DNA of 60,014 bases, filler included, from Jimgerdemannia flammicorona (taxonomy: Eukaryota), in the NCBI GenBank assembly GCA_003990765.1. It is 3 parts of 3 records of this genome, joined end to end, with 100 filler letters (N's around TTAATTAATTAA, not from the genome) between each part and the next. Parts side by side here need not be neighbours in the genome. Positions count along the whole stretch, not along the records: positions 20,040 to 39,977 come from RBNJ01001799.1; 2 more parts are not named here. The stretch is one strand, 5' to 3'. Of the stretch, positions 17,861-47,571 are shown in pieces. How positions within the stretch are numbered: position 1 is the stretch's first letter; each line of letters begins with the position of its first letter. Both the position numbers and the translations under genes were made by a program. Below the pieces are notes generated by a model. The model worked only from the letters and a program-made list of their open reading frames with translations. It was not told where the DNA came from and did no database searches.

Positions 17861-18170
17861 GTATGGAAGAATACTTACTATTCATCATAACACACCTCAG
17901 TATGGCCAAGTGCTAACAATAACTTCGAAAGACTTATCACGTTATCTATCAGGGTTGAGTTATTTTTATCCTCGGAGTATTGACGCATTTGCTTTCAAAG
18001 ATTGAGAGGTCATCCGCCGAATGCGCCCCATGCGCCCCACGATGGGAAATCCGAATGAGCATATGCGGTCACGTTACATGGTCGAAATTGAACCTCCGAA
18101 AACGCGCAGTACTCACTCAACATAAAAAGCTCGCTAGAGCCAATTATTGTGAACAATTACCGATTCCTCA

Positions 18171-18374
18171 ATGGCTCCGAAAAAAAGCCAACCTGAAAAA
18201 TTGGTCTGCAACAACTGCAACAAGAGCAGGAAATTCTGTGACAAAAAAGATCCTTGTTCAAGGTGTCAGGGCTTAGGAAAAGATTGTTCGTATATCCGCT
18301 CCAACATAACACCCGCCAGTGGCAATGTCGCGAAAAGGCTAAAACGGACTAACTCGCCATCGACGATTGAGTAG
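18171..18374 (+). pseudogene. Zn(II)2Cys6 binuclear-cluster DNA-binding domain (short ORF, probably first exon of a disrupted gene)
   Basis: CNNCNKSRKFCDKKDPCSRCQGLGKDCSY fits C-x2-C-x6-C-x5-C-x2-C-x6-C; lies in a CpG-rich island; the obvious downstream splice (ga|gtaggt...ctag|) leads to a stop. Confidence 0.75.
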
Positions 18375-18740
18375 GTTATTACAATGTTTATGAGTACAAT
18401 CTCATCCGATCTATTAACCGCTGCTAATAATATCTCACAAAACCTAGCCATGCCTTCTGACAATAATGACGCAAACGTCGACGTTGGAACCGCGTCTACC
18501 AGCGCGATTGGCGGCCAGATGACTACCCACCATCAAGGAGACAACACCCAGGACTTAGTGCAAAACGTGAACAACAATATCGATAGTTGGAGGTTCGGCG
18601 ATTCTTGGATCCGTTAACGGAACAGTATATACTGGTAAGATATTATGGCATGTGTGAAAATTTATATTTACAAACTAATCTTTTTTTAAAAAATAGCAAT
18701 TTCTTTCGGTTTTTCTTGGGTTTTTTTCATAATTTTTTTG

Positions 18741-19325
18741 AAGTACGACAAAGCAGAGCCACTTTATGTACGGGCGCTGGCAATCAATGAGAAGGTGTTG
18801 GGACCAGAGCCCCCGGACATGGTAACAACTCTAAATAACCTGGCTGTACTTTACTTTAGCCAGGGCAAGTACGACAAGGCGGAGCCGCTGTTCGAACGGG
18901 CAGGCAATCTATGAGAAAGTGTTGGGACCAGAGCACCCGGACACGGCAACAACTCTGAACGACCTGGCTGGACTCTACCAAAGCTAGGGCAAGTACGACA
19001 AGGCGGAGCCGCTGTACGAACGGGCGCTGGCGATCTGTGAGAAGTTGTGGGGATCAGAGCACCCAGCCACCGCAATATGTCTGAAGAGCAGGGCAAATAC
19101 GACAAGGCGGAGCCGTTGTACGAACGGGTCCTAGCGATCCGTGAGAAGGTGTTGGGAGCAGAGCATCCAAATACGGCTTTTCTCTACATAGGACAAGGCG
19201 AATATGACCAGGCAACGTCATTGTTAGAACGCGCGCTGGCAATCTTTGAAAAGGTGTTGGGATCCGAGCACCAAAACATGACCAAATCTCTGCAAGCACT
19301 AGCTATATGTCTCCGCACTGTTTAA
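18741..19325 (+). pseudogene. TPR array of the 42-aa kinesin-light-chain/fungal NLR type, 5 units, frameshifted
   Basis: Units start at 18741, 18867, 18991, 19095 and 19200 (spacings 126, 124, 104, 105 bp); consensus GKYDKAEPLYERALAI.EKVLGPEHPDTATTLNNLA.LY. Confidence 0.9.
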
Positions 19326-19939
19326 TGGAGTTACTAGATATCTTCATTCATATGTATTTCTATACATATTTTCTGGCTTATGGATTGCAAGTTGCTCCTT
19401 CCCTTCTCTCGTAGTGTCGGACATTCTTTCTAGTATATACCAATATATCTACCAAATTTGTGTGATGGTATTGCTGTAATGCCTCCACATCATTGTGTTA
19501 TCTTTATTTTTATTTATTTATATGAAATAAATTATGTGACTATTGGAATTAGTAATCTTTACTGCATATGTTTACGTCTCAAAATTCCAATAGGATAAAT
19601 TCGGGTTGGATATACCATCGCACCCTTCAACCCGGTCAGCACATGTAGAAAGAGATTGTTACCCTCTGGTAACTCGCACCAACGGCCCAACTCCACCCAG
19701 CCTCGCCCAGTGGTATTGAAAATCGTTTGTGCGTGGTACCGATGCGGTGTGAATTTTCACGGATAAGTTGATGACTCCGCAACTGGGCTCAATCTCGGAA
19801 GCCGCCATCAGCATTCTCTGTCGCGATGGCGGAAGTGAAAGACGGAATGGGCTGGATCGACGAACTGACAAAACGCGCGATGGTTCGACAATATTCTGAC
19901 CTTAAAACATATCTGGCATATGACGCCTGTCCAAAAAAA

Positions 19940-20039
19940 NNNNNNNNNNNNNNNNNNNNNNNNNNNNNNNNNNNNNNNNNNNNTTAATTAATTAANNNNN
20001 NNNNNNNNNNNNNNNNNNNNNNNNNNNNNNNNNNNNNNN
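19940..20039. other. Artificial assembly spacer (N run with TTAATTAATTAA)
   Basis: 100-nt block of Ns containing a six-frame stop linker. Confidence 0.97.
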
Positions 20040-22569
20040 CCCAAAGATTTTGGAACTGTTGAGGACTCATTGGGGAAATTTATAGAGTGAAGAAAAAGGA
20101 GGTAAGGATGCCCTGAACATTAAACAGTAGCTGGAGGACTGGTACCCAGATCCAGTATTGGGCCTGGAGATGCTGGAACATCTGATGTAGGGAGAGGAAG
20201 TATACAAGGTCTTGGCTGCAACAAGCAAGGGGACAGCTCCAGGAGAGGATGGGCTCCCCTGGGATTTTTTGGAAGAAAATGGTTAGGGTGGAGGTAGTAT
20301 TAGAGGAGATGACAGTAATGTATGGTGAGGTCCTTTGGTCTGGAACTTAGATTGGGGACCAGCACCTAGGGCTGGTCTCCCTGCTCTATAAGAATAAGAG
20401 AAGAAGAGAAGATTGAAAGAACTAGTGACCAATCATACTCCTTGATATAGACTGCAAGATAGTGACAAATATCTTGGTGACTAGATTGCAGAGTATAGCT
20501 CAGCAGGTATTAGGAGTGAAGCAGAGGGGATTTGTTAGAGATTGGTTGATCCAAGATAGAACTGCCTGGGTTTATAAGATGATTGAAGAGACTCAAGCAG
20601 CTGGAATTGATGATCAGTTAGTATTTCTGGATCAGGAGAAGGCCTATGATAGAGTGAGGAGAGTCTGGCTGGAAGGAGTACTGAAATATGTGGGAGTTCC
20701 CCAAGCATTCAGGAGGTCATTAATCAGTCTTTTGGAGAACAGTCAAGTAGCATTGGTGGTGAATAGGCATAGAGGGGTGGCTTTTCCACTGGGTTATGGG
20801 GTGCCGCAAGGGGATCCTTTGTCACCCATCCTATATGTCCTTTCCTTGAAACCCCTATTGGACAGGATTCAGTATTTAATTGGGGGTTTGGACATTTTGG
20901 AGATTAATTGGAAGGTTGGGGCTTTTGTAGATAATATGATAGTTGGACTAGATTTATTAATGGATGTAGAGGAATTAAGGAGGACTGTGGAATGGTATGA
21001 GAGGGGCTCTGGTGCTCGACTCAACTGGTACAAGTGTGAGATCCTAGTGCTAGATGGTAGAATTGTTGGTGGCAATGTGATTGGAACAGTGGTTCCAGCA
21101 GAAGAACTGGTCTGATACTTGAGAATATACTTCTTGGTATATGGGTCCCTTCTATCCTGTACATGGTGGAAACAGCAACTACTAGTATGGGAGAATACTC
21201 TTTTGAGGTGGGGTGGTTGGCATATATTCTTGGCAGGAAGGGTGACAGTGCTGAATATGTGTTGGCTACTAAAGCTGTGATATGTAGGGTATCATCTGGA
21301 CTTTTTAGCATGAGTGGTTGGGTGTCTTCTAAAGATGACAAGATCTTGGATTTGGGCTGAGCAGTGAAGTCAGATAGGCTGAGAGGTTCTGACCCTATCT
21401 GTTGACAGAGGCAGGCTGGGCTTAGTGGATTTTCCAAGTATCTATACTGTCTGAGAGCTTGGTGGCTAAAAAGGGGCAAGTGAGTTAAGAGGTTGAGAGT
21501 GGGTACCACTTATACAGAGGGTGTGAGAAGTCTGTTACTCTTCTTATAGAGTGACTGGTGATCTGCTTGTGATGGTAGCCATGGATGAGAGTAGGAGGAT
21601 ATGTTACAAAGGCTTTTGGTGGGAAGTAGTGGATAGTGTAAGAAGAATTGAACTTCAGTGGAGGGATAATGAGGGGGAGGAGGGCTGGGGACCAAGGATG
21701 TAGAGATAGGACTGGCTACTGCTGGGAGATATATTGGTGGAGGACTTTTAGCTTGGTGATGGAATGAAATATATGCAGAGACTCAGGGGTGATATGTGGT
21801 CTAAAGCATGGCAGAGGGTGGAGATTGGCAAGGAGTAGGATTGAAATGGTATTTGGCCTTGGAGTAAGCAGGTGATACACTGGCTTCCCCCCAAGTTCTG
21901 AGTAGTATGGTGGAGGTTCCTAAGGCAAAATGTGATACTGAACTACCAGTCAGGGCACTTGGTAGTAGATGGCATATTTGAGTGTGAGGAGTACATAGAT
22001 ATTAGCCAGGAGGGGGGAGTGGTGCAAATGCCTGAACATTGGCTAGGAGAGTGTGAAGTTTTGGAAGAGCTTTGACACAGTATTTCTAGCAGGCTGGGAT
22101 TGCAGCCCCTGGTGGAGGGGGAAGGAGGGAGATGGGAGGACCACCAGAGAAGGTTAGTGGGTGGGGTGGGAGATAAATGGTTGATCTTGGGTTGGGCCCT
22201 GGTAATTTGGATAGGATTAGCTAGTCATTGGCTTCATGTCTTTAAGGAGGGCCAGTAGGTTGTAATTGAAGTTAAAGTAGTACATTGAGAATGGTTAATA
22301 CTAGACATTTTGAATGGCTAGTAGAGAGGGTAGGACTCAGGTGGGGGGGGGCCATTGGAATCTGGTGAATTGTATTTGTAAAAAGAGTGGCAGGAGAGTT
22401 CAGATGGTTAGTGGCTGAGTTGTTCTTTAGTAGAGAGAGATAGTAAGTAGAGAGAGAGATCCAAGGGACATTGGCTAAGAGATTGTAGGTACATATATTG
22501 TATTATTTATAGATTGAGTAGTAATAAATGGAGGTCTAAGTAACTATAAAAAAAAAATAAAAAAAAAAA
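20040..22569 (+). mobile_element. LINE 3' part (RT, Cys/His motif, poly(A)) inserted into the 5' LTR of the Gypsy element; 5' part lost at contig edge
   Basis: ORF 20462-21115 has FLDQEKAYDRV, GVPQGDPLSPILY and FVDN; poly(A) 22546-22569 abuts LTR sequence equivalent to ~36720. Confidence 0.92.
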
Positions 22570-23176
22570 CTATTGCCATAGCAGCTGATAATTATCTAGT
22601 AATTGAGGTCCTGATCATAAAGTTGTTTTTGCCACAAACTACCTGATAAAGGTCATGATCACAAACCTTACTATAGTTACCAAATTAGTCACTCATACTT
22701 AGTCAGAAATCATAGACCAACTTATATAAATACCCTCCAGTCTCCATCTGAAATTAAGTAGTTTTAGTTCAGTTCTTGATATAAGAATCAAGTCCTCCCT
22801 CTACACACACATTCTCCTGAGTCTTAGTAATGACATCTAAGTGACTTTAGTGTTTCTGACTAAACTCCAGAAGCCTAGCTAACTTCTGCCAGAACTGAGA
22901 CTGGTATATAAATCCCCAAAGACTTAAGTAAATCTATTGAATCTGAATTCTAAGATAAATTCAGTCTATGTATAGCAAAGAATAAGACTCTTGAAAGATA
23001 GGACAAATCAGAAAGAACTTTGAAAGATAAGGCACTACCACTACAACTACTTTTAAGTGAGTACATTCTCAAACTGAAGGCTTCTTAGTACACATTGTGT
23101 ACTGAGTCTCTAAGTTATATCTTATTTTCCTAAGTATCCAAAGGATCAGAGAGGAGTATAAATAAAAGTTATTACA
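22570..23176 (+). repeat. 5' LTR (first ~180 bp displaced by LINE insertion)
   Basis: Direct repeat of ~36720-37357; ends gttattaca. Confidence 0.93.
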
Positions 23177-23179
23177 ACT

Positions 23180-23191
23180 TGGTAGCAGCAG
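23180..23191 (+). promoter_or_regulatory. Primer binding site, probably initiator tRNA-Met
   Basis: tggtagcagcag 3 nt after the LTR CA; TGGTAGCAG is complementary to the CUGCUACCA 3' end of eukaryotic tRNAiMet. Confidence 0.7.
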
Positions 23192-24070
23192 ATTACTAAG
23201 CCAAGAAGATACCAAGAATATACTTCTGAAGTTGGAACAAGACCAACTTTGGACAGAAGTAACCCCCAGAACCAACTGTGGATTTCCTAGGATCAAACCC
23301 CCAAACTAGAGCTAGAGAATAGGACCAAGTAGTACCAGGAAACCACAGACCCAGGGATCCACTAGCTTGTAATTAACCAGGCTTACAAGGATCTATACCA
23401 GGCCTTTAGGACTTACCACCCAGGACTGAGGAATATAGCCAGCCACCATAGGTTCTATGAACTTCTCTGTGACTACATTGGAACCACCAGGACTCCAGAA
23501 TCTACTGCTGCAACCACCTAGGATTTTTTAGATTATATCTCACCTCCTGCTATAAGAGAAATAGCTGTCAAGTGGATTACTTCTGACAGATACCATCACA
23601 CCCCTACCAAGACCTCACTCTACTATAGGCTAGTTGTATACTATACCTCTGCTATAACTAGATATGAGAACAAGCAAGTAGGCCACCCATCTCCTACTGC
23701 TGAACAAGAAGCAGGCCCATTTACCTAGCCAGAAACTGATATTCTCTTTGAAGGATCTAGTCAGTACAAGGATGCACTATCTCATCAGGAAAGGGAGTCA
23801 GATGAAGACTCTACAGGATATCAGTCTGATGATAGCCAATAAGAAATAGCAGGCCTAGGAATTTACCAAGGAACTACAGGTCAAGAAGATAGGACCCCAG
23901 AACCAATCCAGCCACCTATACAGAGGTTTGGTTTACCCCCTCTCACAGGACTCTTTGATCTGATATCCAGGAATTAAGTAACTCCAAGTCATACAGCACT
24001 ACAACCCCACTAGGTAGAACAATCTTCAGGAGAATCTACCTCTACAGGTCCACTACTAATAGTCAATATA

Positions 24071-25154
24071 ATGGTAGATACCAACATTGCAGTACTGACT
24101 ACTCAGCTAGCTATACTAGTAGGGATAGTAAGACAAATTGCTGAACAGAACAAACCAACCAAGACTTTGTAAATTCCAACATTTAGTAGAAAAAACAGTG
24201 ATATCGAAAACTTCATTAATGCAGTTGATACAGACTACCAAGCCAATCAATGGAATGATAACCGAGTGCCTATAGGAATGCTCACAAACAACCAGAACAG
24301 TACCCTCTAACAGCTGTTTGCTACATCAGCAGCACAAGTGGAAACAGTAGCCACATTCTTCACTGGAACAGCAGCCAAATTCTGGCGAACCTTGGAACAA
24401 CACTCAGTAACCTGGGAAGCCTGCCCTCAAGTCAATGGACAAGTACCTGGCAACAATAGACCAGGTTGAGATGACCATGGAGCAGGCCCAGGACTCAAGA
24501 CCTTGCTACTGACCAAATTCCGAAATGTGGCCTACATATAAGAAATTTGGAACAAACTGTCCCAGATGAAGTTCCACAAGAATGGCAAAGAAGATCTAGA
24601 GACCTTTGCCACCAGAATGGATGCCTACCTTAAAACTGTTGGACTTACCTACCAGAAGAACAATTTGGCTATCAATGATACCAGAGCCAACCATCTCTTT
24701 GCAGCCCTACCAGACTGGCTCACCCAGAAGATCAAGGAACAAGGTCTTCCCCAAGGATGTCTCCACTACTCATGGTGTTTTGCCCAAGTACAAAGAAGAG
24801 CCCACAAAATCCTTGCTACACAAGCCCCATGAAATCAAGAACACAAGAAGGATAACCAAGATAGGAGAAACCCTACCAGAAGAAATGATCAAAGGAATGA
24901 CCAAAGATATGATCAAAGATATGATTAAAGGAACCAGTAAAACCCCAGAGGACCCAGACCTCCCACTGAGGATGAAAAGAAGCAGCTCTATGAAAAGGGA
25001 TTGTACTTCATCTGCAAGAAGGCAGGACATATCTCAGTCAAATGTCCTGAGAAGAAAAACAGATCAGACAAACCCAGTAATCAGAACATTACTGTCATTG
25101 GAGAAGGTCCAGGAAAGAAGAACCCTGAGAATGTCATCAAAGTACAGAAGATAT
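24071..25154 (+). pseudogene. Gypsy gag (probably extends further upstream), with in-frame stops
   Basis: Single frame through 24566-24832 and on to zinc knuckle GL(Y)FICKKAGHISVKC at ~25000-25050, first Cys changed by TGC>TAC; runs in frame into the dUTPase. Confidence 0.8.
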
Positions 25155-25252
25155 ACATATAACTCTTGTTCACCTTTCACCAGTAACATTCAGGTAACAC
25201 AAGACTCAGACAACACTTTTCACTATATTTTTGATGTACAGCAACTATCAAC

Positions 25253-27169
25253 ATGGACGGCAATGATCAAACTGGTGAGCGTACTGGACAGGGGGGTGCT
25301 GGTGCCTTTGGCTGGCAGCAAGTGGGGAGGAGGGGAGATGGTTTGGGGATGCTGGGAGCCATGATGGCTAGCCGAGGCCCTGGTGGTGGAGGGAGGGGCA
25401 GGCTGAGGCAGAGAGGTGGGGAGAGGTCGACCTTTGCTGACAAGGTCAGATTGGGAACAATGGCCTCAGGTCTGGATGGTTGGCTGGGTCTGGGGAAGGT
25501 GTCGAAGGCTGCTGCTGGGGGACAGGGAGATGTGCCCAGAGGGGTCTCAGGGGGCAGGGGAGGAGCCGGTGTAGGGGAGGGAGATGTGACTGTTGATGAG
25601 GCTGTGACTGGGGATCTGACAAAAAATCCAGATATGACAGTGGTTGGTGATTCAGGACAGGGAGGGGGCATGAGGCCCAGGGACCTGGCAGATGGTGTGA
25701 TGGGCATGGTGTCAGCCCCATTACTCAAGAAGTCGCGGTTGGAATTCGCAGTCATGATGTGCTTCCAGAGCTTGGCAGTGATGGCGAGGATGATTCTGGG
25801 GCTGATAGCACAGGAGGCTAAGGGTGCGGTGTTGGTGAAGTTTTTGAGGGGAAAAGAAGGAGTCGAGGTAGGGTTCGAGGAGGAAGACACCTTGTTGGCA
25901 GTGATGGAGAAGGGGGTGAAGATTGGCAGAGTAGTGGTTCCTATGGCTCGGTGCATGTGCTGGGACCCCTGAGTGGTGCAGTTGACAGTGTTGGATCTCC
26001 CTACTGTGTCGAAGGAGAGGACCAGGGAGGCAGTTGTGGAGGCGATCAAGGAGTATGGCGAAATTGTGGATGTGGGGTTCAAGGTCTGGGAGGGCACAGA
26101 GCTTAGGACTGGTGATGTAGATATCAGAGTGAGGCTGGCTGGGAAGGAGAATACAGGGAAGTCGAGGGACTGGCCAGCGGTGCTTAGATGGAGACTGGTG
26201 GAGTGTAAGGTCACGAGGGTGAAGGGGACCCAGGAGGAGGAGGAGGATCTGTTGGAGGCCCTGGAGGATCTGGAAGGGGCGGTGGCGAGGAGGAGATTGG
26301 CCTGGAAGGAGTTTGAGGCCAGGACGGTAGTGGGGGAGGTTGATGGGAAGAGGGTCCGGATGGAGAAGGGGGCCTGGGAGAAGTTGCAGGGAAGGCGAAT
26401 CCAGAAGGAGCTGCTGGCAATGTTGGGTGAGGGAAGGGCTGGTGGTAGCTCAGGGGAGGGAGTTGCAAGGTTGAGGGAGAGTGCCTGGGCTGAAGGGGGA
26501 GGAATGGCACAGAGTGTAGTACAGATTGGAGTGGGGGAGGTAAGAGAAGGCAACTTGGAGGCAGATGCCGAAATGGACGAAGGTGTGCGCCCTACATATA
26601 GTGTCCCGGAGGGAGCTAAGAGGGAGGAGAAGCTGCTGGATGTGCCGGATGAGGAGTGGGATGAATCCATAAGGAGGAGTGCACTGGTGGACCCCGAGGT
26701 AGATAAGGGACAAATTGCTCAGGGTGCGGCAGAGGCAGTAGATGAGGAGAAGTGGATGTGGAAGACCCTAGAAGGGGTTGCGGCTGAAGAGCTGGGGGGT
26801 GAGGATTTCAGGGTGATGGAAGAGAGGCACTGGGAGGAGATTCTTAGGGGAGAGGAGGTGCCGAGGAAGATGAGGAATGAGATCCTGGCAGTCCTCCTGG
26901 AGTCGGTGGAGTATCAAGTAGATGATCAGTAAGAGGAGGAACTTAGGAAGATGGTGAGTGAGAGGGCACTTTTCTTGTGGACCACAAGGAAGGGACTGGA
27001 GAAGTGGCATGCTGTCTGCTTGGACTACCGGTCAGATATGGAGGAAGTGGACAGAGTGGAATGCCAGGAAATCTTGGGGGCACTAGATGCTCAGGATATT
27101 GCGGAGGGTGAATTGGAGGCTGAACGGCGCTTGGATTTGGCTGGGAATGGGATGAGCATGGAATTCTAG
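25253..27169 (+). pseudogene. LINE ORF1 (~638 codons, two internal stops)
   Basis: ORF-track pieces 25253, 25973 and 26951 share one frame; stops TGA (CGA in the paralog near 4500) and TAA. Confidence 0.88.
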
Positions 27170-27199
27170 GCTGGGTCCCCTTTACAACATTTTTCCAAT

Positions 27200-30100
27200 A
27201 TGAACAGTACAACTAAGATATTCTCGCTGAACGTCAATAGGTTATGGGGGGCAGCTAGGAGGAAGCATATTTTTGGATGGCTTAAGGGACTGGATGCAGA
27301 CCTCTTCTTGTTACAGGATGTTCATTATGAGGTAGATGTGGACTTGCAGGATTGGACTAGGGAATGGGGGGGCATGGCAGTATGGAGGGGGAAAGTGTGT
27401 ATTCTCATTCAGAAAGGGATAGAGGACATTGAGAACATTGGACATTGGGGGTCTAGGGTGGTGTGGGGAAGGTGGAATAGGCCTGGATGGGGTTTGTTGA
27501 TGGTTGGGTCTTGTTACTGCCCAGCAGAGAGAGGGGAGAGGGTGGATTAGATTTGTGGATTGAAGGAGGCTGGTGTATTGGGGGAAGTTGGGCTGGACTG
27601 TATGGGGGGTGACTTCAACATGGTTCAGGATAAGGAGATGGATAGAACAGATAGTGGGAGAGGCATGTGAGGCAAAAGTGATGGGTTGGGTGACTGGTTA
27701 GAGATAGAGAGGTTGTGTTCATTAGTGGACTTGGGAAGATATTTTTGGACTGAGTGGCGGGTGTATACCCACTGGGCGGCAGGACTGGGCTCCAGGATTG
27801 ACTGGGTTCTGACTGCAGAGTGTTGGGGTACAGATGTCTGGTCTGCACTGGAAGTAGTATGGTATCCGTGGTCTGATCACTGGGGGATGTGTGGAGGGGG
27901 GAGGTTTGGGGGAAATGAGGATGGGCCTGGACATTGGCAGCTAAATTCTTCATTGTTGGAGGATAGGGCATTGTGGGAGGGCTGGAAGATAGAGGTGGTG
28001 GGAAATATCAGCAGGTGGCAGGAACAGGGCCTTGGGATTGCAGACCGCTAGAGATGACTGAAGGCAAATACTCAGGGGTATTGGCAAGAGGCTGGGAAAG
28101 AAAAGTGTGCCCAGCATAGGCAGAGAGAGCGGTGGGCCTCACAGCGCCTGGCTGCACTCATAGAAAGATGGGCAGGAGTGCTGGAGGATGGGGACATGTC
28201 TGATTGGTGTATCACTCGAATCCGGTAGGAGATAGAAGAGCTTAAAGGGGTTTTGCAAAGGGAGGAGGAGGTGCAGATGCAAGGAATGGTGGCCAGACTG
28301 CGGTGGTAGGGGCTGGAGGAGGGGGAGAGACCTACTAGGTTTTTGTCAAGATTGTTACAAGCACAACGAATGAAACAGCGGTGGGAGGGGGTTCTGGATG
28401 AGGAGAGAGAGCTGGCGGAGGGGACTCCAGCAATTCTGAGCCTATTGCAAACCCAGTGGGGGAATCTATGGAGTGAAGAGGAGGATGGAATGGATGCTTT
28501 AGACATTGACCGACAGCTGGGGGATTGGCACCCAGACCTTGCAATGGGACTTGGGGCATTGGGGGACCCGGTGAGTGGTGGGGAGATTTGCAGGATTGTG
28601 GCCTCGACAACTAAGGGGACAGCCCCAGGAGAGGATGGACTTCTCTGGGATTTTTGGCAGAAGATGACTGGGGTGGGGGAAGTGCTAGAGGAGATGACTG
28701 CTATGTGTGATGGGGTTCTTCAGTCTGGTGCTTGGATTGGGGGACAGCGACTAGGGCTAGTTTCCTTGCTCTACAAGAACAAGGGAAGGCAAGAGGATTG
28801 GAAGAACTGGCGGCCAATTATGCTTCTCGACATGGACCACAAACTGGTGATGAAGATCCTGGTGGGGAGGCTGTAAGAAATCACTCAGCAGGTGCTTGGT
28901 GTGGAGCAGCGTGGGTTTGTCGGTGGTTGGCTGATTCGAGATGGGACAGCTTGGGTTCATGGAGTGATTGAAGGTGCCCGGGCGACAGGGGTAGATGGTA
29001 GATTGGTATTTTTGGACTAGGAGAAGGCCTATGATCGAGTGTGGAGGATATGGCTGGAGGGAGTGCTGAAACAGATTGGCATTCCCCCAGGGTTTCATGG
29101 ATCTTTGATCGGCCTCCTAGAGGACAGTCAGGCAGCACTGGTCATTAATAGCCACAGGGGGGAGACCTTCCCCCTGGGGCGTGGGGTACCGCAAGGGGAC
29201 CCGATGTCACCCATTTTGTATGACCTTTCTCTGGAGCCCCTACTGGATAGAATTCGGCGGCGGATTGGGGGTTTGGACATTCTCAGGGTTAATTGGAAGG
29301 TGGGGGCCTTTGCTGATGATATGGTGGTTGGGCTGGGCTCCTTGGCGGATGGAGGGGAGTTACAGAGATCTGTGGAATGGTATGAGAGGGGTTCTGGTGC
29401 TAAACTTAACTGGCACAAATGCGAGATGCTAGTGCTGGGAGCTGGCATTGTTGGCGGCAATGTCATTGAGACAGTGGTGCTGGTGGGGGAACCAGTGCGT
29501 TACTTGGGGATCTACTTTTCAATGTTCGGTTCTCTTCTTCCCTGGGCTTGGTGGGACCATCAGCTTCTGGAGTGGAGAAATGTTCTATTGCATTGGAGAG
29601 GCCAGCACATGTCTCTAGCCAGAAGGGTAATGGTGCTGAACATGTATTGGATACCTAAGCTATGGTATGTTGGATATCACTTGGATTTCCCAGCCTGGGT
29701 GATCAAAGGGCTGTTGAAGATGGTGAGATCATGGATCTGGGGAGGGCGGTGCAGCCAGGTTGGTTGGGAGGTGCTCACACTGCCCTTGGAAAGAGGTGGG
29801 CTGGGCTTGGTGGATTTTACTAAGTGGCTTCTTTGTCTGCGAGCTTGGTGGTTGCAAAGGGCAAGCGAGCTTCGGGGTCAGGAGCAGGTACCACTCATGC
29901 AGAGGTTGTGGGAGGTTAGGTACTCCCCACGTGGTGACTCGGGCGACCTGCTTGCAATGGTGGCCATAGAAGGGAGCAGGAGGATGTGGTTTACAGGCTT
30001 CTGGTGGGGGGTGGTGGATGGCGCCAAGAAAATTGGACTTTGCTGGTGAGGTGATGAAGTTGAGGAGGATTGGGGACCGGAGATGTGGCAGTGGGACAGG

Positions 30101-30850
30101 CTTCTACTGGGTGGGGTTCTGGTGGAGGACTTCCAGCTTAGTGAAGGTTTGAAGTATCTGTGAGGCCTTGGTGGAGACCTGTGGCCCAAAACCTAGCAGA
30201 GGGTTGGAATTGGTGAGGAGTGGGATTGGCATGTGAGCAAAAGAGTGAGGCAGTGGCTGCCCCCCAAGTTTTGGGGGGTGTGGTGGCATGTCCTATGGCG
30301 GAATGTGATGTTGAACTATCGGTCAGGGCACCTGGTGGATGGTGGAGTTTTCGAGTGTGAGGATTGTTTCAATGTTGGTCAGGAGGGAGGAGTGGTACAA
30401 ATGCCTGAACATTGGCTGGGTGAGTGTGAGGTTTTGGAGGAGTTTTGGGGATGTATTATGGATAGGTTAGGGCTGGGTGCCTTGGAGGGAGAGGGAGGGG
30501 GAAGATGGGGGAGGCTCTGCCAGCGACTGGTGGGTGGGGTTGGGGACGAGTGGCTGACCCTTGGTTGGGCTTTGGCCATATGGGTGGGGTTAGCGGGGCA
30601 TTGGGTTCATGTCTTTGAGGAGGGGTAGCAGGTTGGGGTCAGCGACAAGGTGGCGCAATGGGAATGGTTGCTATTGGACATTTTGAATAGCTGGTGGCAG
30701 GGTTGGGGGCTAGGGGGGGGATGCCGCAGGGGTTTGGTACAGTGTATCTCCCGGAAGAGTGGTGGGAGGATTTGGGTAGTGGGTAATTGGGTGGTGCTTG
30801 GGCAGGGGGAGGTCAAGGGAGGAGGGTTGGGCCCACGGGGCATTGGCTGA
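27200..30850 (+). pseudogene. LINE ORF2: APE endonuclease, reverse transcriptase, C-terminal CCHC (~1216 codons, in-frame stops only)
   Basis: FSLNVN, LLQD, GGDFN, SRIDW, PWSDH, GPGHWQLNSSLL; KNWRPI, GVPQGDPMSP, FADD, YLGI, LPLERGGLGL; CEDC...EHWLGEC. All ORF pieces are in one frame. Confidence 0.95.
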
Positions 30851-30949
30851 GGGTGGGAGTGACATTGTATTGTTAGAACTATAGACTTTGATAATAAAGG
30901 GCAGTCCAAGTGACTATAAAAAAAACCAAAAAAAGAAAAAAAAAAAAAA

Positions 30950-31360
30950 TACAGAAGATATGGTACAAGGCTACCATCCCCACTAAGGCCCACCCAACCA
31001 ATGCTGGATATGACCTCTACAGCAGCCAAGACCTCACCATTCCACCAAGTACCAATGCTACAGTGCAAATAGAAATTGCAATGTAAGCTTCCAAAGGTAC
31101 ATACATCCGCCTTGCTGAGCGAAGCAGCCTAGCCAAAGAGTTCAACATTGGACTAGGAGGAGGAGTAGTTAACTAAGAATTTACTGGTAAAATCTATGTC
31201 ATCTTGCGAAATTTTGGAGATACATCATTTGAAGTCAAAACAGGCCAAAGGATTGCCCAAGCAATCATTGAAGAAATCTGTCAAGATCTCACCATTGAAG
31301 AAGTCCCCAAACTCTCCCAGACAGACTGTAGCAAGAAAGGGTTTAGATCTACCAACAAAC
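30950..31360 (+). pseudogene. dut: dUTPase domain of the Gypsy polyprotein
   Basis: After removing the LINE: NVIKVQKIWYKATIPTKAHPTNAGYDLYS...RLAERSSLAK...GGGVVN*EFTGKIYVILRN...KTGQRIAQ...TDCSKKGFRST, i.e. all five trimeric dUTPase motifs; two stops. Confidence 0.92.
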
Positions 31361-31679
31361 CTCCCAGTTAAAAGGTCACTACCATGAAAGAAGATAATGA
31401 AAACTGTTATAAGAGAATTGCAGATGGTTATGCACCATGTGGATGATGCTCTCATTCTATTCAAATGTACTGCATGAAACATGTTGGTAAATGCCATGCA
31501 TACCTCTCCAAAGTTTTCAAAATTCAATCTGAGAAGCATCAAGCCCCACAGACTGAGGAACCTGAACAAGACAACCCTCCTTGTGAAGGATGGAGAGAAA
31601 CTGACTTTGAGGAGACTGACAGCAATTGGGACAACAATGAGGATGAAGAGCTCAATACCATCAAGAAGGAGGACAGTTG

Positions 31680-34600
31680 CATCAAGTTCACAGGCCAAGT
31701 CCACAGACAGAATGTCAATGTCTTGCTTGATAGTGGTGCTACTAGAAACTACATCAGCACCAAGACTGCTAAGAGAATTGGAGCCTGAAGCAGACCAACC
31801 ACTAAGAAAAGAAGTGTTACCTTTAGTGATGGAAAAACTACACCATTGACCAAGATCTGCGAAGATCTTTTACTCAAGATTGGCAAATATCAAGAGAAGT
31901 TAGACTTCAGCATTGTAGACCTTCCAGGACAAGACATTATCTTAGGAAAAGCCTGGTTGACCCAGCACAACCCAGATATCAACTGGAGAACCAATGAGGT
32001 TAACCTGACCCATGAAGGCAGAAAGATCACTCTGATACCCCAGGAAGATACCAACCACCAAGGAATCAAAATCATCTCTGCCATTCAAATGAAGAGACTC
32101 TCTCAAAAAAAAAGGGAAATACCTACTTCATCTGTATAGTACAAGAAGTTACTGAAGCTACAAGTAGCTCAATCTCAACAGAAGCTCAAGAACTGTTTGA
32201 AGAATTCCAAGATGTATTTCAGGACCCCCAAGGACTTCCACCCAAGTGCCAAATCCAACATGGAATTGATCTTATTCCAGAATCTGAATCCCTATACAAG
32301 AGTATCTACCAACTGGTCCAACCCAAGCTCAAGACTCTCAAAGATGAATTGACCAAACTACTGGCCCAAGGATACATTGAACCCAGCCACTCTCCATTTG
32401 GAGCCCCCATTCTATTTGTCAAGAAGAAGGATGGCTCTCTGTGAATGTGTATTGACTACAGAGCCCTCAACAAGATCACCATCAAGAACCAGTATGCCTT
32501 GCCTAGGATTGACGAGTTGCTACACCAAATCTTCAAGGCCAAGACCTTTTCTCTACTGGACTTGTGAAATGGCTACCACCAGATTCTCATTGATGAGAAG
32601 GACATTGAAAAGACAGCTTTCTGAACATGGTTTGGACACTACCAGTTCCGAGTCATGCCTTTTGGATTGACCAATGCACCAGCAATATTCTAGTATCTGA
32701 TGAATGATATCTTTGGACCACCCCTCAACATCTGTATCCTTGTGTATATTGACAATATACTAATCTACAGTGAGACAGTAGAGCTACACTACACCCACCT
32801 CAGACAAGTACTAACCCTCCTGCAAGAACACCAGCTCTATGCCAAGATGAGCAAATGCAAGTTCTATTAAGACTAGATTGAATATCTAGGACACATCATC
32901 TCTGCTGAAGGTATCAATGTGGACCCCCAAAAGGTATCAGCCCTTAAGGATATCCCTATCCCTACTACCCTTAAGCTACTCCAGTACTTTCTGGGTATTG
33001 CTGATTATTACCAAAGGTTTATCTAAGGATACTCTACTATTATAGCTCTATTAATCAGCCTGGCCCGCAAGGGAGTAAACATCAAAGCTGAATGGACCCC
33101 CGAATGCACCCTGGCTATAGACTATCTCAAGAGACTCCTTACTGAGGCCCCAGTGCTAATTGCACCTGACCTTATCAGACCATTCACTCTGACCACAGAT
33201 GCCTCTGACATTGCTATTGGAGCAGTACTCAGCCAAGAAGACCACCCAGTAGCCTACCTTTCCTAAAAGCTCAAGCCAGCTGAGACCCGGTATACCACCC
33301 ATGAGAAGGAACTCCTGGCTATTGTCACTGCACTCCAGGAATGGCACCATTTCCTCCTAGGATAGCTATTTGTGGTCTACACTGATTACCATGCACTGCA
33401 GTATATTCACACATAGCCCATGCTGACCCACAGACAAGCCTTCTGGATGGAAATCATTGCCAACTTTGATATGGAAATCAAGTATATCCCAGGCAAAACC
33501 AACCATGTGGCTGATAGTTTCTCCAGGTATATGGAAGATGAACTTGTCTTCATGGTCAAAGTAATTGGAGACCTGACCCAGATGATCAAGAATGGCTATC
33601 AGCAAGACAGCCCCCTGATGAAATTCCTTCATTTCTGCCAAGACCCAGAGGCCGAGGTTCTAGAACCCATGAGGCAAATGGCCAAGAGATTCACTTACCA
33701 TGATAGACTTATCTACAGGGACTATGATAGAGTGGTTGTATCCAACAATGATGCTCTGCGACTCAAGATCATGCAGGAACTCCATGATACTCCTGCAGCA
33801 GGACACTTTGGTTTCGAAAAGACCTACAACCTTCTCTCAAGAGAGTTTTACTGGCCCAAAATGACCAAGGACATCAAAGACTTTGTAGCCTCATGCGAGA
33901 TGTGCCAAAGGTTCAAAAGTGGTAACAAGCTACCAGCTGGACTCCTGCAACCCTTGCCTATCCTGAGCCACAACTGGGATCAGATTGCAATGGACTTCAT
34001 TGTCCAACTCCCCAAGACCAAGGCAGGATGGGATGCCATTGTGGTATTTGTAGACCGCCTAAGTAAACAAGCCCATTTTGCACCCACCAAGACCACTGCT
34101 ATAGCACCAGAGATTGCTGAGATTTTTCTCAATCAAGTATTCAGGCTACATAGCATGCCTAGTACTATTGTATCTGATCGAGATATCAAGTTCACAAGCA
34201 ACTTCTGGAAGGCATTCTTCTCTCTCTATGGAACTAAGCTGAAGTTCTCTACTGCCTATCACCCTCAGACTGACGGTCAAACCAAGCGATCAACAGGACT
34301 CTCAAACAGATGCTTAGCATCTTCTGCTGTTACAAGCAAAATGATTGGGATAAGTATCTAGCCCATGCTGAGTTTGCCTACAATAATAGTCAGCAAACCT
34401 CCACAAAGAAGACTCCATTCTTCCTGAACCATGGTCAACACCCAAGAACCCCAAGTACTACTGCAAAATCAGCAGTCCCAGCAGCCCAAGACCTGGCCAA
34501 GACTATTTCTGACCTTATGCGAATGACAAGAGATGCCCTCATAGAAGTACAAGACTACCAGACCAAGTATGTGAACTTGAAGTGAAGAGAAGTCTCCTAT

Positions 34601-35053
34601 AATATTGGTGACATAGTCATGCTTAGAACAGACCACCTCCACCTGGATACCCTAGCACAACAACCAGCCAAGAAACTCTGTGCTAGAAGAATTGGACTAT
34701 ATAAGATTGCAGAAAAAATCAGCAAAGTCAACTACAAGTTGCAACTCCCTCACAATATCCAAGTACACCCAGTATTCCATATCAGCCAATTGGTAGACTA
34801 CCATGAGAACTTATTCCCTGAGCATACAGTTCCACCACCACCCCCAATTAGGATCAATAATCATGAGAAATTCGAAATTGAGGTCTACAAATATCCCAAA
34901 ACAGTCAAGCGGTTTTTTCTGATCAAGTGGAAGGGTTACCCCACCCATGGTGCCACCTGGGAAAAAGAAGAAGCCCTGAAGAATATACGTGAAGCCCTCT
35001 AGGACTACATGGAAACACTCACCCTCCAGCAAAGAAAGGACCTGCAGCTCTGA
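31680..35053 (+). pseudogene. Gypsy pol: aspartic protease, RT, RNase H, integrase, chromodomain
   Basis: VLLDSGATRNYIS; VKKKDG, PFGLTNAP, YIDNILIYS; TDASDIAIGAVL; H-H-C-C, MDFIVQLP, VSDRD, AYHPQTDGQ; VHPVFHISQL then FLIKWKGYPTHGATWE chromodomain; several stops and frameshifts near 32110 and 34290. Confidence 0.95.
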
Positions 35054-35312
35054 GAATTAAAGCACATAGTGAGCAAAAGGATACCACATATTTTATCTGG
35101 AAATATATAATACCAAACATTGCAGAAAAAGGTATACCATGGATAACCAACAAGAAGAGGCCTGAGCAAAGAACAGTCTAGCATATTATAGCAAAATGCA
35201 TTTGAACAACTCCATTTCATGTCATCTGTGTCATCTCTGCTGGATGATGATGGATGCTTCATATGGAACTTAAGAAAGCTGATGATGTCAAAACCAGTCT
35301 AAGTCCATCCAC

Positions 35313-36527
35313 ATGACAGATATTGTTACTAGAAATTGTCTCAGATTACAAGAAAAGTCTATTTCCGAAAGGTTCGAACCCCCAGCCGCAACAATGGGAG
35401 CCCTCACCCTAGACAAGGATGGCCAGTCCTCGCAAATGTACCAACCAGACAAAAAAAAAATAGACCAAGACCTGTTAACCTTATGTAACCACAACTATGA
35501 GTGACGAGATCTTTGAAATCAGGATTTTCTCATGTGACCAGCACATGCCCTGCTTACAGCAATAGGTCATGCATTTTTCCAGAAAGTATGACCAAAGGAA
35601 GGTCACATTAGATGGGTGAATAAGTATAAATACCCTAGGCAAGAATACCCCACAACCCTCATCCCCCTCTCCTTACAAAGAAAAGACAAGACAAGAATGC
35701 CTGCTACCCACCGCCAAACTGCCTGCTGTAGCCAGCCCCTTCCAAGCCAGGTTGACTGCCTCTTTGGACATATCCAGGTTGCTATCCAAGGAAGGAACCA
35801 CTGCTCAGAGGCCCTTAACCTCTCCAGCCAGGACCTAGGACACTATGTCCTCAACTGCTATGAAGTCATCAAAAGAGCCTACCTTACCACCAGCTGCCTA
35901 GAGATCTGGCATGAATACAAGATCAGCCATCAACTCCTCCAATGAGCAAAGAACCTGCCCATGGACTAAGTCTCTGATTGGACCCACCTGGATGAGAGTG
36001 AGCAAAGACTTGCCAAGAAGGTCCATCGAATCATGTGCCATACACCCTTTGCAATCCCCAACCTCAACTATGTCCAACTGAAGGACTTCCAGAACCTCTC
36101 CTTCTTCAAGGTTGATGAACTAGAGATCAAGGTAGCCCAAGAATCCAACTCCTGGATCACTCTCAAGTCTACTGACTACGAACCCTACTGGAGCCCCCTC
36201 CTGAATGACAACTCTGACCAATGACTCCAAGGCCTCTCTGATCTCTTTGAAGGACCACCCATCTGAATGGATATTCCCAGGCATGAGAACCAAGAACCCT
36301 ACTTGGATGGCCCCAACTGTATCAGATGGAGAACCCCTACACCAGCACTTATCCCAATGCAAGAACCATTTGCAGACCTCATTGACTTCTCTATCCTAGA
36401 CAGTGAGCCATCAGCAACCACCACCCCCCCTGCTACTAAAGAAGATGCCAACAACTCTGAGGAAGATTCCCCACCTTTCTCTCCCCTGGTTCTCAATTTC
36501 TCACTCAATAAGGATGTTGATTTCTAA
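35313..36527 (+). pseudogene. Additional sense ORF (ORF3, ~400 codons) of unknown function between pol and the 3' LTR
   Basis: ORF pieces at 35313, 35616, 36033 and 36267 are in one frame, separated only by TGA/TAA codons explicable as C>T or G>A changes; the final stop overlaps the PPT. Confidence 0.7.
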
Positions 36528-36538
36528 GGGGGGAAGGA
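36526..36538 (+). promoter_or_regulatory. Polypurine tract
   Basis: aaggggggaagga immediately before the LTR-initial TG. Confidence 0.9.
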
Positions 36539-37357
36539 TGTAATAGAATGAATGAGTGAACAGATGGAATGCAATGAGTGATCATGAACGATCATGTGAC
36601 CTGGCGAGTGATGACATCATCATATGATCGAGTGCGATATATGAATAGCGAGTGACAAACGATGCGAAATGATACAGAAAACAATATCCAGCTTATCCCC
36701 AACAATCGGCACTGCAGTAACTGTTGCCACAGCTGCTGATCATTGCCTAGTAATTGAGGTCCTGATCACAAAGATATTCTTTATCAAAAACCACCTGACA
36801 AAGGTCGCAATCACAAATCTCATTATAGTTACCAAATTAGTCACTCATACTTAGTCAGAAATCGCAGACCAACTTGTATAAATACCCCCCAGTTTCTATC
36901 CAAAATAAAGCAATTTTAGTTCAGTCCTTGATACAAGAATCAAGTCCCCCTCACACACACACATTCCCCTGAGTCTTAGTAATGACACCTAAGTGACTCT
37001 AGTGTTTCTGACTAAACTTCAGAAGCCTAGCTAACTTCTGCCAGAACTGAGACTGGTATATAAATTCCCAAAGACTTAAGTAAACCCATTGAACCTGAAT
37101 TCCAAGGCAAATTCAGTCTGTGCACAGCAAAGAACAAGACCCTCGAAATAGGGCACAAGAGAAAGACCTTTGAAACAAAAGGCAAACCAGAGAAATACCT
37201 TTGAAAGATAAGGCACTGCTGCTACAATTACTTACAAGTGAGCGCTTTCTCAAACTGAAGGCTTCTTGGTACACATTGTGTACTAAATCTCTAAGTAATA
37301 GTCCACTTCCCTAATTATCCAAAGGATAAGAGAGGGATAGAAGTGAGAGTTATTATA
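36539..37357 (+). repeat. 3' LTR (~819 bp)
   Basis: Starts tgtaatag after the PPT and ends gttattata (CA mutated to TA relative to the 5' LTR); TATA-like gtataaata near 36876 and aataaa near 36904. Confidence 0.93.
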
Positions 37358-39977
37358 TACTACAAGATCCATAGGGGTAGGGCAGAGGAAACATAGTATT
37401 GATAGGGGGGGAAGTCAGATGATGGGTCTGATGGTGGGTCAGGTGACTGATAGGGGACAGGGGTCTGGAGGTGGGACAGCTGAGACTGGCATTCCTGGGG
37501 CTGAGCTGGTGGCAGGGCCAGTGGCTGGAAGAGGGACTGCTAATGGCCTTTCTAGGACTAGTGAGGTGACTGCTGGTGTCTCAGGAGGTAAGAGGAAGGT
37601 GATGATGGCAGCTGACTCTAGAGAACTAGTGGTGCATCCTTTTTTCCACAAATCAGTATCAATGTGGGTGATCTCAGCAAATTTTCTGAGATTGGGCTTG
37701 TCTACCAGAGAGGTTTTGCAGCTGGTGGGTGAGGAGATTACTGGCATAGAGTCTCTGAAGTTTATTCCATTAGTAGAGACAGTGGAGATTGGCTTTGTGG
37801 AGGAGGAGGAGATGGTGAAGACCCTGGAGAAAGGGTTGGTGGTTAAGAACATCAAGGTTGAGATGGTGGGGTATCTGAGGTGGGATCTATGTATAGTATA
37901 TCTAGTGATCAAAGGGCTGCTGACACTTGGGAGGCAGGAGACTAAAGAGATAGTGGTGGAGGCACTGATAGGATTTGGTGAGATGGTTGACTTTGGATTT
38001 ATGTTCTGAGAGGGGACTAAGCTGCAGAATGGCAACTGTGAGATTATAGTGAGACTGGAGGGCAAGGAGGCCACAGGGCTAGGGAGGGACTGGCTGGAGG
38101 TGATTTGTGTTGGAGGACAGGAGTGCAAGGTATGGAGAAGAAAAGGTTCTGAACAGGAGGAGAAAGAATTACTACTTGCCCTGAAGGAGAGAGAGACTGT
38201 GAAGGAATTGCAGAAGAGGAGATGAGAGGAGTTCACCAAGGACTGGATCTGGATTCTGACAGATAGGAGGAGGAAGAGGTGGCAGAGGGCAAACTGGGAG
38301 CACCTGCAAATAGTCCTCCAGAGTGTAACAAGGGAGGAAGAAGTGTAGACAGAGATGGCCAAGAGTCAGATAGAGGAGGTGGAGATAGCTGAGGTGTCCT
38401 TTTCACAACTGAGAGGTGTGGAGAACTCAGATCATGTATCAGTGAAGGGGAAGTGGACTGATAGAGAGGAGGTGGGTGAAGGGAGTTTTGAGAATGTCAC
38501 TGAGATAGTGCCTGAGACCCAGTTAGAGGATTTTCATATGGTGGGAGCAGTGAATGTTCATTGGGAATGTCCAGAGACTGGTGAGGTAGTGTGGCTGGAG
38601 AAGGATGCTGAGGAGAATGATCTGGTAGATGGCCTCTGATGTGTCAGCAGACAGGGAGATACTACAGAAGCTGAGTAGAACCCCAAGGCCTGCCACTCCT
38701 GGGCCTCTAGTGATGACTGCAGATGACTGGTATCAGGCAGTGCTTGAGGAGCTTGTGGAGGAGGATATCAAGGAAGTGGATGTATTTAATAGATCTCAGG
38801 AGGCTTGGGAGGGTTTCTTTAATATTGCTTTATAAGGGCTTAAACTGGTGATGATGATGGTGGCGGCACTTCTGAATGATGAAGGATATGAGATAGATGA
38901 GGCCCAGATGGCTGACATCAGGAAAGTAGCTTCAGAGAGAGTTAACATCTTCTGCAGTAGTGTGAATGGAGCCTGTATCTAGAGAGCCATCTGCGAAGAA
39001 TGAAAGGAAATCATCTGTGGTTGAGCTGAAAAGGTGGTAGTGATTCTGGTGGAGCTTTAAACAATTTTATTAATAATGATGAACAATCTACATATTTTAT
39101 CACTGAATGTTAATGGTCTATATGATGGAGTGAAGTAAAGGTGTCTATTTCATTGGCTGAAGGTTAGGAGGTATAATGTAGTTTTTCTTCAGAATGTTTG
39201 AGCTTATGGTGAGCAGGATTATATGGAGTGGAGCAAAGAATGGTATGGCAGTATAGGTTGGAATGAGCAGGTGGGCATCTTAGTGGACTTGGAGAGAGGT
39301 GAGCTGGTGGAGATTGAGATTTATAGTGATTGATTGATTTGGGGGAGATTAAAAGAAGGAGCTAGTGATGGACTTATTGTAGGCTCTGCTTACTTGCCAG
39401 CAGTTGGCAGAGAGCAAAACCAATGGGTGGAGGGCTGGCTGACTTGGGGTGACTGTGAGGGAATTGGGCTGGACATTTTGGGGGAGGACTTTAATATGAT
39501 ATATGACAGAACACTAGATAGGTCTGATGGTGGAGTAGGTGTGGCTGTGTCAGCAGGACTCTTGTGATGGCTTCAGATTGAGAGAGATATGGGATTAGTT
39601 GATAGGGTATAGCAATATCAAGGGGAGAGTCCAGGGCCCTTTACTAGGTAGCACTCAGTTGGTGAGAACTTAGTAGAGACAAGAATTAATTGGATTCTAG
39701 TGGCAGAATACTGGGGTAATGTATTGGATTTGGTGGAAGTATGGTAGTGTCCTTGATCAGATCACTGGAGAGTCAAGGTGCATAGAAGATTTCAGGTATT
39801 CCATGGAGGTGGAGGTCACCGGAGACTTAATGTAGCTTTACTCAAAAGGCAGACAGAGTGGGAGAAATTTGTGACAATTGCAAGGCAGAAAGTGATATGG
39901 TGGAAGGACAGTAGGCAGCTGATAGAGCAGTGGTGGGGTAAATTTAAACATTTGGCAGGTGCCTATTGGCATGATAT
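37358..39977 (+). mobile_element. Divergent LINE subfamily: ORF1 and APE part of ORF2, cut at contig edge
   Basis: ORF1 homology (SLKF..VEIGF, YLRWD, DFGF.F*EGT); ORF2 near 39075 MNNLHILSLNVNGL, LGEDFN, P*SDHW, GGGHRRLNVALL. Confidence 0.85.
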
Positions 39978-40077
39978 NNNNNNNNNNNNNNNNNNNNNNN
40001 NNNNNNNNNNNNNNNNNNNNNTTAATTAATTAANNNNNNNNNNNNNNNNNNNNNNNNNNNNNNNNNNNNNNNNNNNN
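39978..40077. other. Artificial assembly spacer (N run with TTAATTAATTAA)
   Basis: Same structure as the first spacer. Confidence 0.97.

Positions 40078-47516: not shown

Positions 47517-47571
<55 letters not shown>

Follow-up and report, generated by a model that had tools for sequence, protein, structure and literature searches.

Transposon DNA of the ectomycorrhizal fungus Jimgerdemannia flammicorona carries a mutation footprint centred on CpG dinucleotides, which is probably explained by deamination of CG-methylated transposon domains combined with a general C>T bias, rather than by canonical repeat-induced point mutation (RIP). The analysis covered a 60,014-nucleotide stretch (hereafter the window) composed of three unlinked pieces, at positions 1–19939 (19,939 bp), 20040–39977 (19,938 bp) and 40078–60014 (19,937 bp). 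The middle contig consists entirely of transposons, with a Ty3-type long terminal repeat (LTR) element at 22571–37357 in which a long interspersed nuclear element (LINE) is nested at 25155–30949. The material thus amounts to one 20-kb contig carrying the LTR element and the LINE, plus two contigs unlinked to it, so the CpG-rich tracts described below sit on other contigs than the two elements. An earlier note on this DNA had proposed RIP-like hypermutation at both CpG and CpA, confined to repeats and of special interest if the host lay outside Dikarya; J. flammicorona does so, as a member of the Endogonales (Mucoromycotina), with a genome given as ~240 Mb and >77% repeats in PMC10386755.

Loss of CpG rises with the age of the element, from an observed/expected ratio (O/E) of 0.29 in the nested LINE (97 observed, 335 expected) to 0.11 in the LTR element that hosts it (45 of 405, LINE removed) and 0.012 in the 50–70%-diverged copies. 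Old transposon and AT-rich DNA, 29.4 kb in all, holds 14 CpG where 1156 are expected, and the deficit on the first contig alone has a Poisson p of ~1e-226. Gene-rich DNA (17926–19939 and 46418–60014, pooled) instead shows 952 CpG for 902 expected (O/E 1.055), and the noncoding interval 49232–51078 shows 77 for 83 (O/E 0.93). The GpC control is not depleted (O/E 0.78–1.05 overall, 0.78–0.90 in the transposon classes), and TpG and CpA stand above expectation in transposons, mostly at 1.0–1.7. At 17926 and 46418, the onset of CpG is abrupt and takes only tens of bases; the earlier note, which described CG as rare in transposons and abundant from ~17930 and ~46370, understated the contrast. The (CA+TG):CG ratio in the old copies is 258:1, compared to roughly 15:1 in human DNA, and if these copies are near equilibrium, the rate of CpG destruction exceeds that of re-creation by a factor of a few hundred. 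AT-rich spacers without any recognisable repeat are CpG-free as well, which fits poorly with strict repeat dependence. The change is limited to transposon and heterochromatin-like domains, and "confined to CpG-free domains" describes it better than the "confined to repeats" of the earlier note.

The direction of change was assessed separately for each element. The two LTRs were compared as an unpolarised pair, counting substitutions with gap-free neighbours, and differ by 71 transitions and 19 transversions (90 substitutions). Given that the closest of 7705 matches in protein collections was only 51% identical, the LTR element could be polarised only at conserved columns, namely 429 columns of pol (protease, reverse transcriptase (RT), RNase H and integrase) against 120 homologs, with zero usable homolog columns in gag. 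For the LINE, we used 507 columns at which at least two of 14 relatives agree, these relatives being fragments of 53–83% identity; a close intact copy of either element was not found in the protein collections. In pol, 90 of the 429 columns deviate, comprising 39 C>T/G>A changes, no T>C/A>G changes, 27 transversions and 24 unassignable differences. The LINE has 50 C>T/G>A changes against 10 in reverse, with 26 transversions, 56 ambiguous columns and 365 unchanged. Transitions also prevail against other genomic copies, as seen in contigs of two public runs (X1 and X2) compared over 22570–37357 with patchy cover (13 and 15 of 30 bins), where they make up 178 of 204 and 107 of 127 changed places, respectively.

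These changes are balanced between strands, with 20 C>T and 19 G>A in pol, and 12 C>T and 38 G>A in the LINE, the latter balanced per available base (845 C, 2291 G). Strand balance, together with LTRs that differ from each other, indicates a process acting on duplex genomic DNA after insertion, not on RNA or cDNA. APOBEC-like editing that acts on the RNA or cDNA of retroelements as they transpose, leaving transitions and a base skew, would suit the sense strands of both elements (LINE G 40%, C 15%, GC skew ~+0.46; LTR element A 33%, G 19%). However, the changes private to this copy strike C and G about equally per site, the LTRs of a single element have diverged, the old copies are symmetric (C>T 0.25–0.35, G>A 0.24–0.29), and AT-rich DNA outside the elements is CpG-free too. 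We therefore hold editing to be very improbable; it is largely refuted for the copy-specific changes and could still explain the base skew of the family, which the copy-specific mutations, being strand-symmetric, do not explain.

With regard to sequence context, for which the samples are small, CpG changed roughly 10 times or more as often per site as the other contexts. In the LTR pair, transitions affect 5 of 5 CpG sites, 29 of 81 CpA+TpG sites (36%), 16 of 40 CpC+GpG sites (40%) and 9 of 92 CpT+ApG sites (10%). The CA/TG and CC/GG classes do not differ (Fisher p = 0.69), and CT/AG lies below each of them (p = 4e-5 and 1.5e-4, respectively). The earlier note held that LTR differences are dominated by transitions in CA/TG and CG; transitions do dominate, all of its examples are present and CA/TG is the largest class by count, yet per site CA/TG does not stand above CC/GG. 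CAG is changed at 9 of 26 sites and CTG at 0 of 21, with no CCG present, and there is hence no symmetric CHG signal in the LTR pair.

The polarised changes agree on the place of CpG. It accounts for 18 of the 39 transitions in pol, where just 13 CpG are left, next to 9 at CpA/TpG, 6 at CpC/GpG and 6 at CpT/ApG; the corresponding counts among the 50 of the LINE are 22, 7, 15 and 6. Related to extant dinucleotides, the non-CpG events in pol are 9/352 (CpA/TpG), 6/252 (CpC/GpG) and 6/348 (CpT/ApG), and CpA/TpG at 9/361 does not differ from the CpC and CpT classes together at 12/612 (p = 0.65). Nonsynonymous G>A changes in the LINE hit 19 of 57 CpG sites (33%) versus 46 of 985 sites in all other G contexts (p = 1e-10), with TpG lowest per site (9/293, 3.1%), followed by ApG (10/213, 4.7%) and GpG (27/479, 5.6%). 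In the old LINE copies, whose alignments to the young LINE are 48–69% identical and saturated, with unreliable CpG columns, C>T stands at 0.35 in CpA, 0.28 in CpC and 0.25 in CpT, and G>A at 0.285 in TpG, 0.243 in GpG and 0.236 in ApG, a difference of just 1.2–1.4-fold between contexts. Among the 40 listed of 320 differences to the run contigs, a small sample that depends on copy history, 10 are at CpG, 13 at CpA/TpG, 9 at CpC/GpG and 4 at CpT/ApG, with 4 transversions. By these counts, CpA is hit without specific preference, being similar to CpC, with both at or above CpT. The RIP-like CpA targeting proposed in the earlier note is therefore unsupported, since CpA is changed no more often than CpC in the LTR pair, pol, the LINE, the old LINE copies or the run contigs, and no more often than CpT in the LINE and pol; of its suggested mutator acting on both contexts, the strongly directional C>T/G>A process is supported, with the excess at CpG that deamination of 5-methylcytosine would lead one to expect. 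The mutation spectrum, its direction and strand symmetry, the grading with age and the sharp domain borders are shown by the sequence.

Dinucleotide indices point the same way as the context counts. We took as RIP criteria TpA/ApT >0.89 with (CpA+TpG)/(ApC+GpT) <1.03, and a composite index >0. The composite index exceeds zero in 13 of 113 1-kb windows and is negative for both young elements and the old LINE copies (LINE –1.00, LTR-element interior –0.83, old LINE copies –0.30 to –0.36). By element or block it is positive only in 22571–24200 (+0.36), which comprises the 5′ LTR and leader, and in the AT-rich interval 15000–17000 (+0.17), slightly positive values being found in some AT-rich blocks. 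Canonical RIP acts only on duplicated DNA, before meiosis. The footprint in the window resembles that RID-dependent CpA>TpA process of the Pezizomycotina in its one-way C>T/G>A change on both strands, many stops and few indels, and in the positive composite index of the 5′ LTR block and some AT-rich relics. It departs from it in the lack of a CpA preference, in CpG as the main target and in indices that are negative for most transposon DNA. Given that CpA preference was tested for and was not present, the process is not RIP as defined; the host, moreover, lies outside Dikarya, and RID is reported from Ascomycota only in a 2026 review (PMC13297926).

The index-positive 5′ LTR and leader (22571–24200) contain 0 CpG, against an expectation of ~7 from the CpG rate elsewhere in the element, and have a TpA/ApT of 1.36. 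The T/A allele falls 51 times in the 5′ LTR and 20 times in the 3′ LTR (binomial p = 3e-4), and TA/(TA+CA+TG) steps from 0.40–0.53 down to 0.18–0.25 near 24290. We considered the sharp mutated block 22290–24290 as proof of a local mutator and rejected it; the step is real, but it does not amount to such proof because stop density is alike on its two sides (7 in ~320 codons versus 6 in ~273) and the LTR may be TA-rich by origin. A possible alternative, to which we give somewhat less than an even chance, is that the excess decay marks a recombinant or chimeric element whose first ~1.7 kb came from an older copy, with no local mutator involved. The missing CpG and the compositional step would follow from such an origin, the LTRs are just ~82% identical with a 29-bp indel, and a comparison of the flanks of the LTR element gave no matching target-site duplication (AAAAC versus TACTA). 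On the other hand, equal stop density across the step argues against a large age gap, other genomic copies (run contigs) diverge by 6–12% from this element along its whole length, and LTR and leader may be TA-rich by origin, the 3′ LTR already having a TpA/ApT of 1.14. With the target-site duplication missing and a 29-bp indel between the LTRs, a recombinant origin in which the 5′ part is the older one is no less likely an explanation of 22571–24200 than a local mutator.

The in-frame stops match the mutation spectrum in both the LINE and pol. The LINE frame (25253–30880, 1876 codons) has 17 stops (8 TAG, 7 TGA, 2 TAA) and no frameshift, with the endonuclease and RT Pfam matches in this single frame, in accordance with the earlier note, which had counted more than a dozen stops. 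That note also held all stops explicable as CGA>TGA, CAR>TAR or TGG>TAG/TGA, which carries no weight by itself because every stop codon can be accounted for in this way; comparison with relatives does resolve 8 of the 12 ORF2 stops of the LINE, as W>TAG (2), Q>TAA/TAG (3), R>TGA (2) and R>TAG (1). In pol, three TGA stops fall at invariant or near-invariant R columns, and TAG or TAA occur elsewhere. Many stops without a frameshift, TAR aligned with Q and TAG aligned with W in relatives might also arise from a reassigned genetic code (TAR = Gln, TGA = Trp/Arg) without any mutation. This can be discarded with near certainty: host genes are long standard open reading frames (ORFs; 755, 448 and 730 amino acids) broken only by short multi-stop introns, and the noncoding LTRs show the same C/T differences. 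The stops, too, align inconsistently: TGA stands at R positions, and TAG is found at W, at Q and once at R, a pattern that one reassigned meaning cannot accommodate.

We infer methylation as the cause of the CpG loss, and likewise the enzymes behind that methylation. The transposon domains of this Endogonales genome would have been densely CG-methylated over evolutionary time, with genes and their noncoding surroundings spared. Deamination of 5-methylcytosine (5mC) yields thymine, and as both DNA strands are exposed to it, CpG would become TpG or CpA, at a rate at least 10 times that of any other change. Some 70% of the expected CpG has by now been lost from the young LINE, ~90% from the older LTR element and ~99% from the old copies. 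Cytosines outside CpG undergo a weaker drift, likewise one-way C>T/G>A, which is similar for CpA and CpC, with both at or above CpT; it creates TAG and TAA stops from Gln and Trp codons and slowly renders relics AT-rich, toward the 18–25% GC blocks (15000–17000). This general bias was possibly aided by some Dim-2-like non-CG methylation, and maintenance may have been the task of a DNMT1-, DNMT5- or Dim-2-type enzyme.

Counterparts exist among fungi. Phycomyces, also of the Mucoromycotina, is described as having DNMT1 and a Dim-2-like enzyme with CG-biased methylation (PMC7862722), Rhizophagus as combining a DNMT1-related protein with bimodal CG methylation that is concentrated on transposons (PMC8647823), and an excess of CpG transitions in Agaricomycotina transposons has been ascribed to 5mC deamination (PMC3318451). 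The J. flammicorona footprint shares with such decay (DNMT1/DNMT5 type) the CpG-specific C>T loss on both strands of transposon domains, the sparing of genes and noncoding DNA, and the grading with age; it differs in its additional one-way non-CpG C>T component. CpG loss in other fungi and in vertebrates is not known to come near the depth seen here (O/E 0.012). Methylation-type CpG erosion of transposons is a known phenomenon; what is notable is its depth and the host lineage. Our literature search, with supplements outside its reach, returned nothing for Jimgerdemannia or the Endogonales as regards methylation, CpG decay or RIP.

Two further fungal systems invite comparison. TpCpG hypermutation in the Pucciniomycotina (Microbotryum, Puccinia), as described in PMC3318451, is likewise a transposon-limited C>T process centred on CpG, and differs in its target, since TCG is over-represented here, counting survivors and not events. 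Among the surviving CpGs of the LINE (25165–30950) and the LTR element (30963–36721), TCG/CGA is enriched 1.33-fold and 1.65-fold, respectively, and ACG/CGT is depleted to 0.38–0.39 of the composition expectation in both, whereas all four NCG contexts stand at 0.86–1.09 in genes. This bias may reflect a flank preference of methylation or mutation, or the original composition of the elements. The Entomophthorales, as treated in PMC11105155, are similar in being early-diverging, in having a huge genome in which Ty3 elements and LINEs abound, and in showing a positive index in some windows; that report uses the index alone, whereas polarised context counts are available here, with CpG carrying the signal and index-positive windows in the minority.

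Several points weigh against passive methylation decay as the explanation. The context skew of the non-CpG changes in the LTR pair (CpA 36% and CpC 40% versus CpT 10%) and the RIP-positive 5′ LTR and leader are left unexplained by passive CG-only methylation, and the loss of CpG is much more complete than in vertebrates, which could mean an active enzymatic process. Under a 3:1 bias of C>T over the reverse, 0 reverse changes among the 21 non-CpG transitions in pol would have a probability of 0.75^21 = 0.002, and these transitions are thus more one-way than predicted. The polarisation itself uses nonsynonymous sites and relatives that are just 24–83% identical. Finally, a 2026 review (PMC13297926) gives 6-methyladenine (6mA), not 5mC, as the dominant mark in early-diverging fungi.

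Much of this would be accommodated by an active, repeat- or heterochromatin-directed enzymatic cytosine mutator, that is, a RIP analogue outside Dikarya that works in bursts, independently of slow passive 5mC decay, with the preference CpG >> CpA ~ CpC > CpT. Besides the one-way change in pol (21 to 0), the excess of CpA and CpC over CpT in the LTR pair, the index-positive 5′ LTR and leader, and the unequal effect on the two LTRs (51 versus 20), such a mutator would suit the near-total elimination of CpG (O/E 0.012; ratio 258) and a LINE that has gathered 17 stops and no frameshift, yet retains an intact 12/12 target-site duplication and poly(A) tail. RIP outside Dikarya has also been suggested, from the composite index, for the Entomophthorales (PMC11105155). 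Against it stand the lack of CpA preference in the LINE (TpG 9/293, GpG 27/479, ApG 10/213) and pol (p = 0.65), a composite index above zero in just 13 of 113 windows, and a loss of CpG that increases with element age, in line with slow decay. The LINE lineage, moreover, may have been poor in CpG already while active, so burst mutation is not demonstrated. The relevant passages of the literature likewise confine RID to Ascomycota (PMC13297926) and cite no RIP signature reported in Mucoromycotina (Venice et al. 2020, cited in PMC8647823). An active mutator is accordingly unlikely in our judgement. Its fuller form appears similarly doubtful, namely that Endogonales possess a potent, domain-limited cytosine mutator that removes CpG ~250-fold faster than it is re-created and also hits CpA and CpC in some segments, as a DNMT-dependent, RID-independent RIP analogue in Mucoromycota. 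If true, such an analogue would be relevant to the question of whether repeat-directed mutagenesis is older than Dikarya, and a domain-limited mutator would help to explain the viability of a genome with 77% repeats.

Summaries of early-diverging fungi often present them as 6mA-dominated and assign 5mC a minor role. The transposon domains of this member of the Endogonales carry a CpG-decay footprint about as deep as possible, with razor-sharp borders to genes. This implies that the lineage has long defended its genome by cytosine methylation that is dense and accurately bounded, or by an equivalent mutator. The result also calls for caution in RIP-index scans, as the classical indices ignore CpG and flag just a minority of the decayed DNA here.

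The features of the window are collected in Table 1. In the LTR element, the terminal TG of the 5′ LTR and the terminal CA of the 3′ LTR both read TA. The gag reading frame is nearly open already from ~23330, a Pfam search with the gag part (24080–25154) gave no match, and the dUTPase and protease share the gag frame when the LINE is taken out. The dUTPase (PF00692, 30967–31353) is placed between gag and protease, and several database relatives of the element also have PF00692. Given that the SH3 domain and chromodomain lie in another frame than the preceding domains, one frameshifting indel must lie near 34290–34316. The nearly open frame ahead of the 3′ LTR matched no Pfam family and may be an additional ORF belonging to the element family.

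Table 1. Features of the window, in order of position (a point in the strand column marks features listed without strand).
Feature	Position	Strand	Basis and remarks
CpG-normal genic DNA, contig 1	17926–19939	.	109 CpG in 2014 bp; Zn2Cys6-like and TPR-like ORFs
Zn2Cys6-like motif ORF	18171–18374	+	
TPR (kinesin-light-chain-like) ORF	19047–19325	+	
Artificial spacers, N44-TTAATTAATTAA-N44	19940–20039 and 39978–40077	.	Join the three pieces
Old 5′-truncated LINE copy	20065–22569	+	blastn to young LINE 69.6% over 2528 bp; 2 CpG in 2505 bp
5′ LTR	22571–23176	+	LTR alignment; 0 CpG, TpA/ApT 1.29, composite RIP index +0.34
Presumed primer-binding site, TGGTAGCAGCAG	23180–23191	+	3 nt after 5′ LTR; motif likeness
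gag part, CCHC zinc knuckle, 6 in-frame stops	24080–25154	+	Translation
LINE target-site duplication, 12 bp, TACAGAAGATAT	25143–25154 (left), 30950–30961 (right)	.	Copies identical 12/12
Young nested LINE	25155–30949	+	Inside gag; endonuclease, RT, poly(A) tail
dUTPase and aspartic protease	30967–32126	+	Pfam PF00692 1.9e-28, PF08284 8e-10
RT–RNase H–integrase, 10 in-frame stops	32127–34316	+	Homologs
Integrase C-terminal SH3 domain and chromodomain	34292–35029	+	Pfam; frame differs from RT–RNase H–integrase
Extra nearly open 333-codon frame, 7 stops	35568–36566	+	Between chromodomain and 3′ LTR
3′ LTR	36722–37357	+	LTR alignment; 4 CpG, TpA/ApT 1.14, composite RIP index –0.02
G-rich old element, nearly CpG-free	37358–39977	+	Flanks 3′ LTR; similarity to LINE weak
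CpG-normal gene-rich DNA, contig 3	46418–60014	.	Phosphatase and helicase genes
FCP1/NIF phosphatase exon	47924–49231	-	99% identical to J. flammicorona hypothetical protein BC938DRAFT_474404
Large ZNFX1/NFX1-type helicase gene	51079–55900	+	AAA_11, AAA_12 and ZNFX1 domains; short introns

The poly(A) tail of the old LINE copy on the middle contig adjoins the 5′ LTR, and the first and third contigs hold four or more further old LINE-family copies, including those at 4151–6492, 9273–14278 and 40441–44322 (minus strand). Beside old LINE copies lie AT-rich blocks (15000–17000, 7000–9200 and 45000–46400) with a GC content of 0.18–0.30 and no recognisable repeat, which may be fully decayed relics. 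One X1 contig joins position 37076, in the 3′ LTR region, to 30296, in the 3′ part of the LINE, separated by 23 other letters. Elsewhere in the genome, the families of the LTR element and the LINE may have copies in different arrangements. The sense-strand skew of the LINE family is extreme, and its protein is rich in Trp, Gly, Glu and Val, with 104 TGG codons, and several columns that read Y, F or L in relatives read W. An antisense ORF of 467 amino acids inside the LINE (25267–26670, minus strand) is probably a by-product of the C-poor, G-rich composition, which leaves few stops on the opposite strand, and not a gene.

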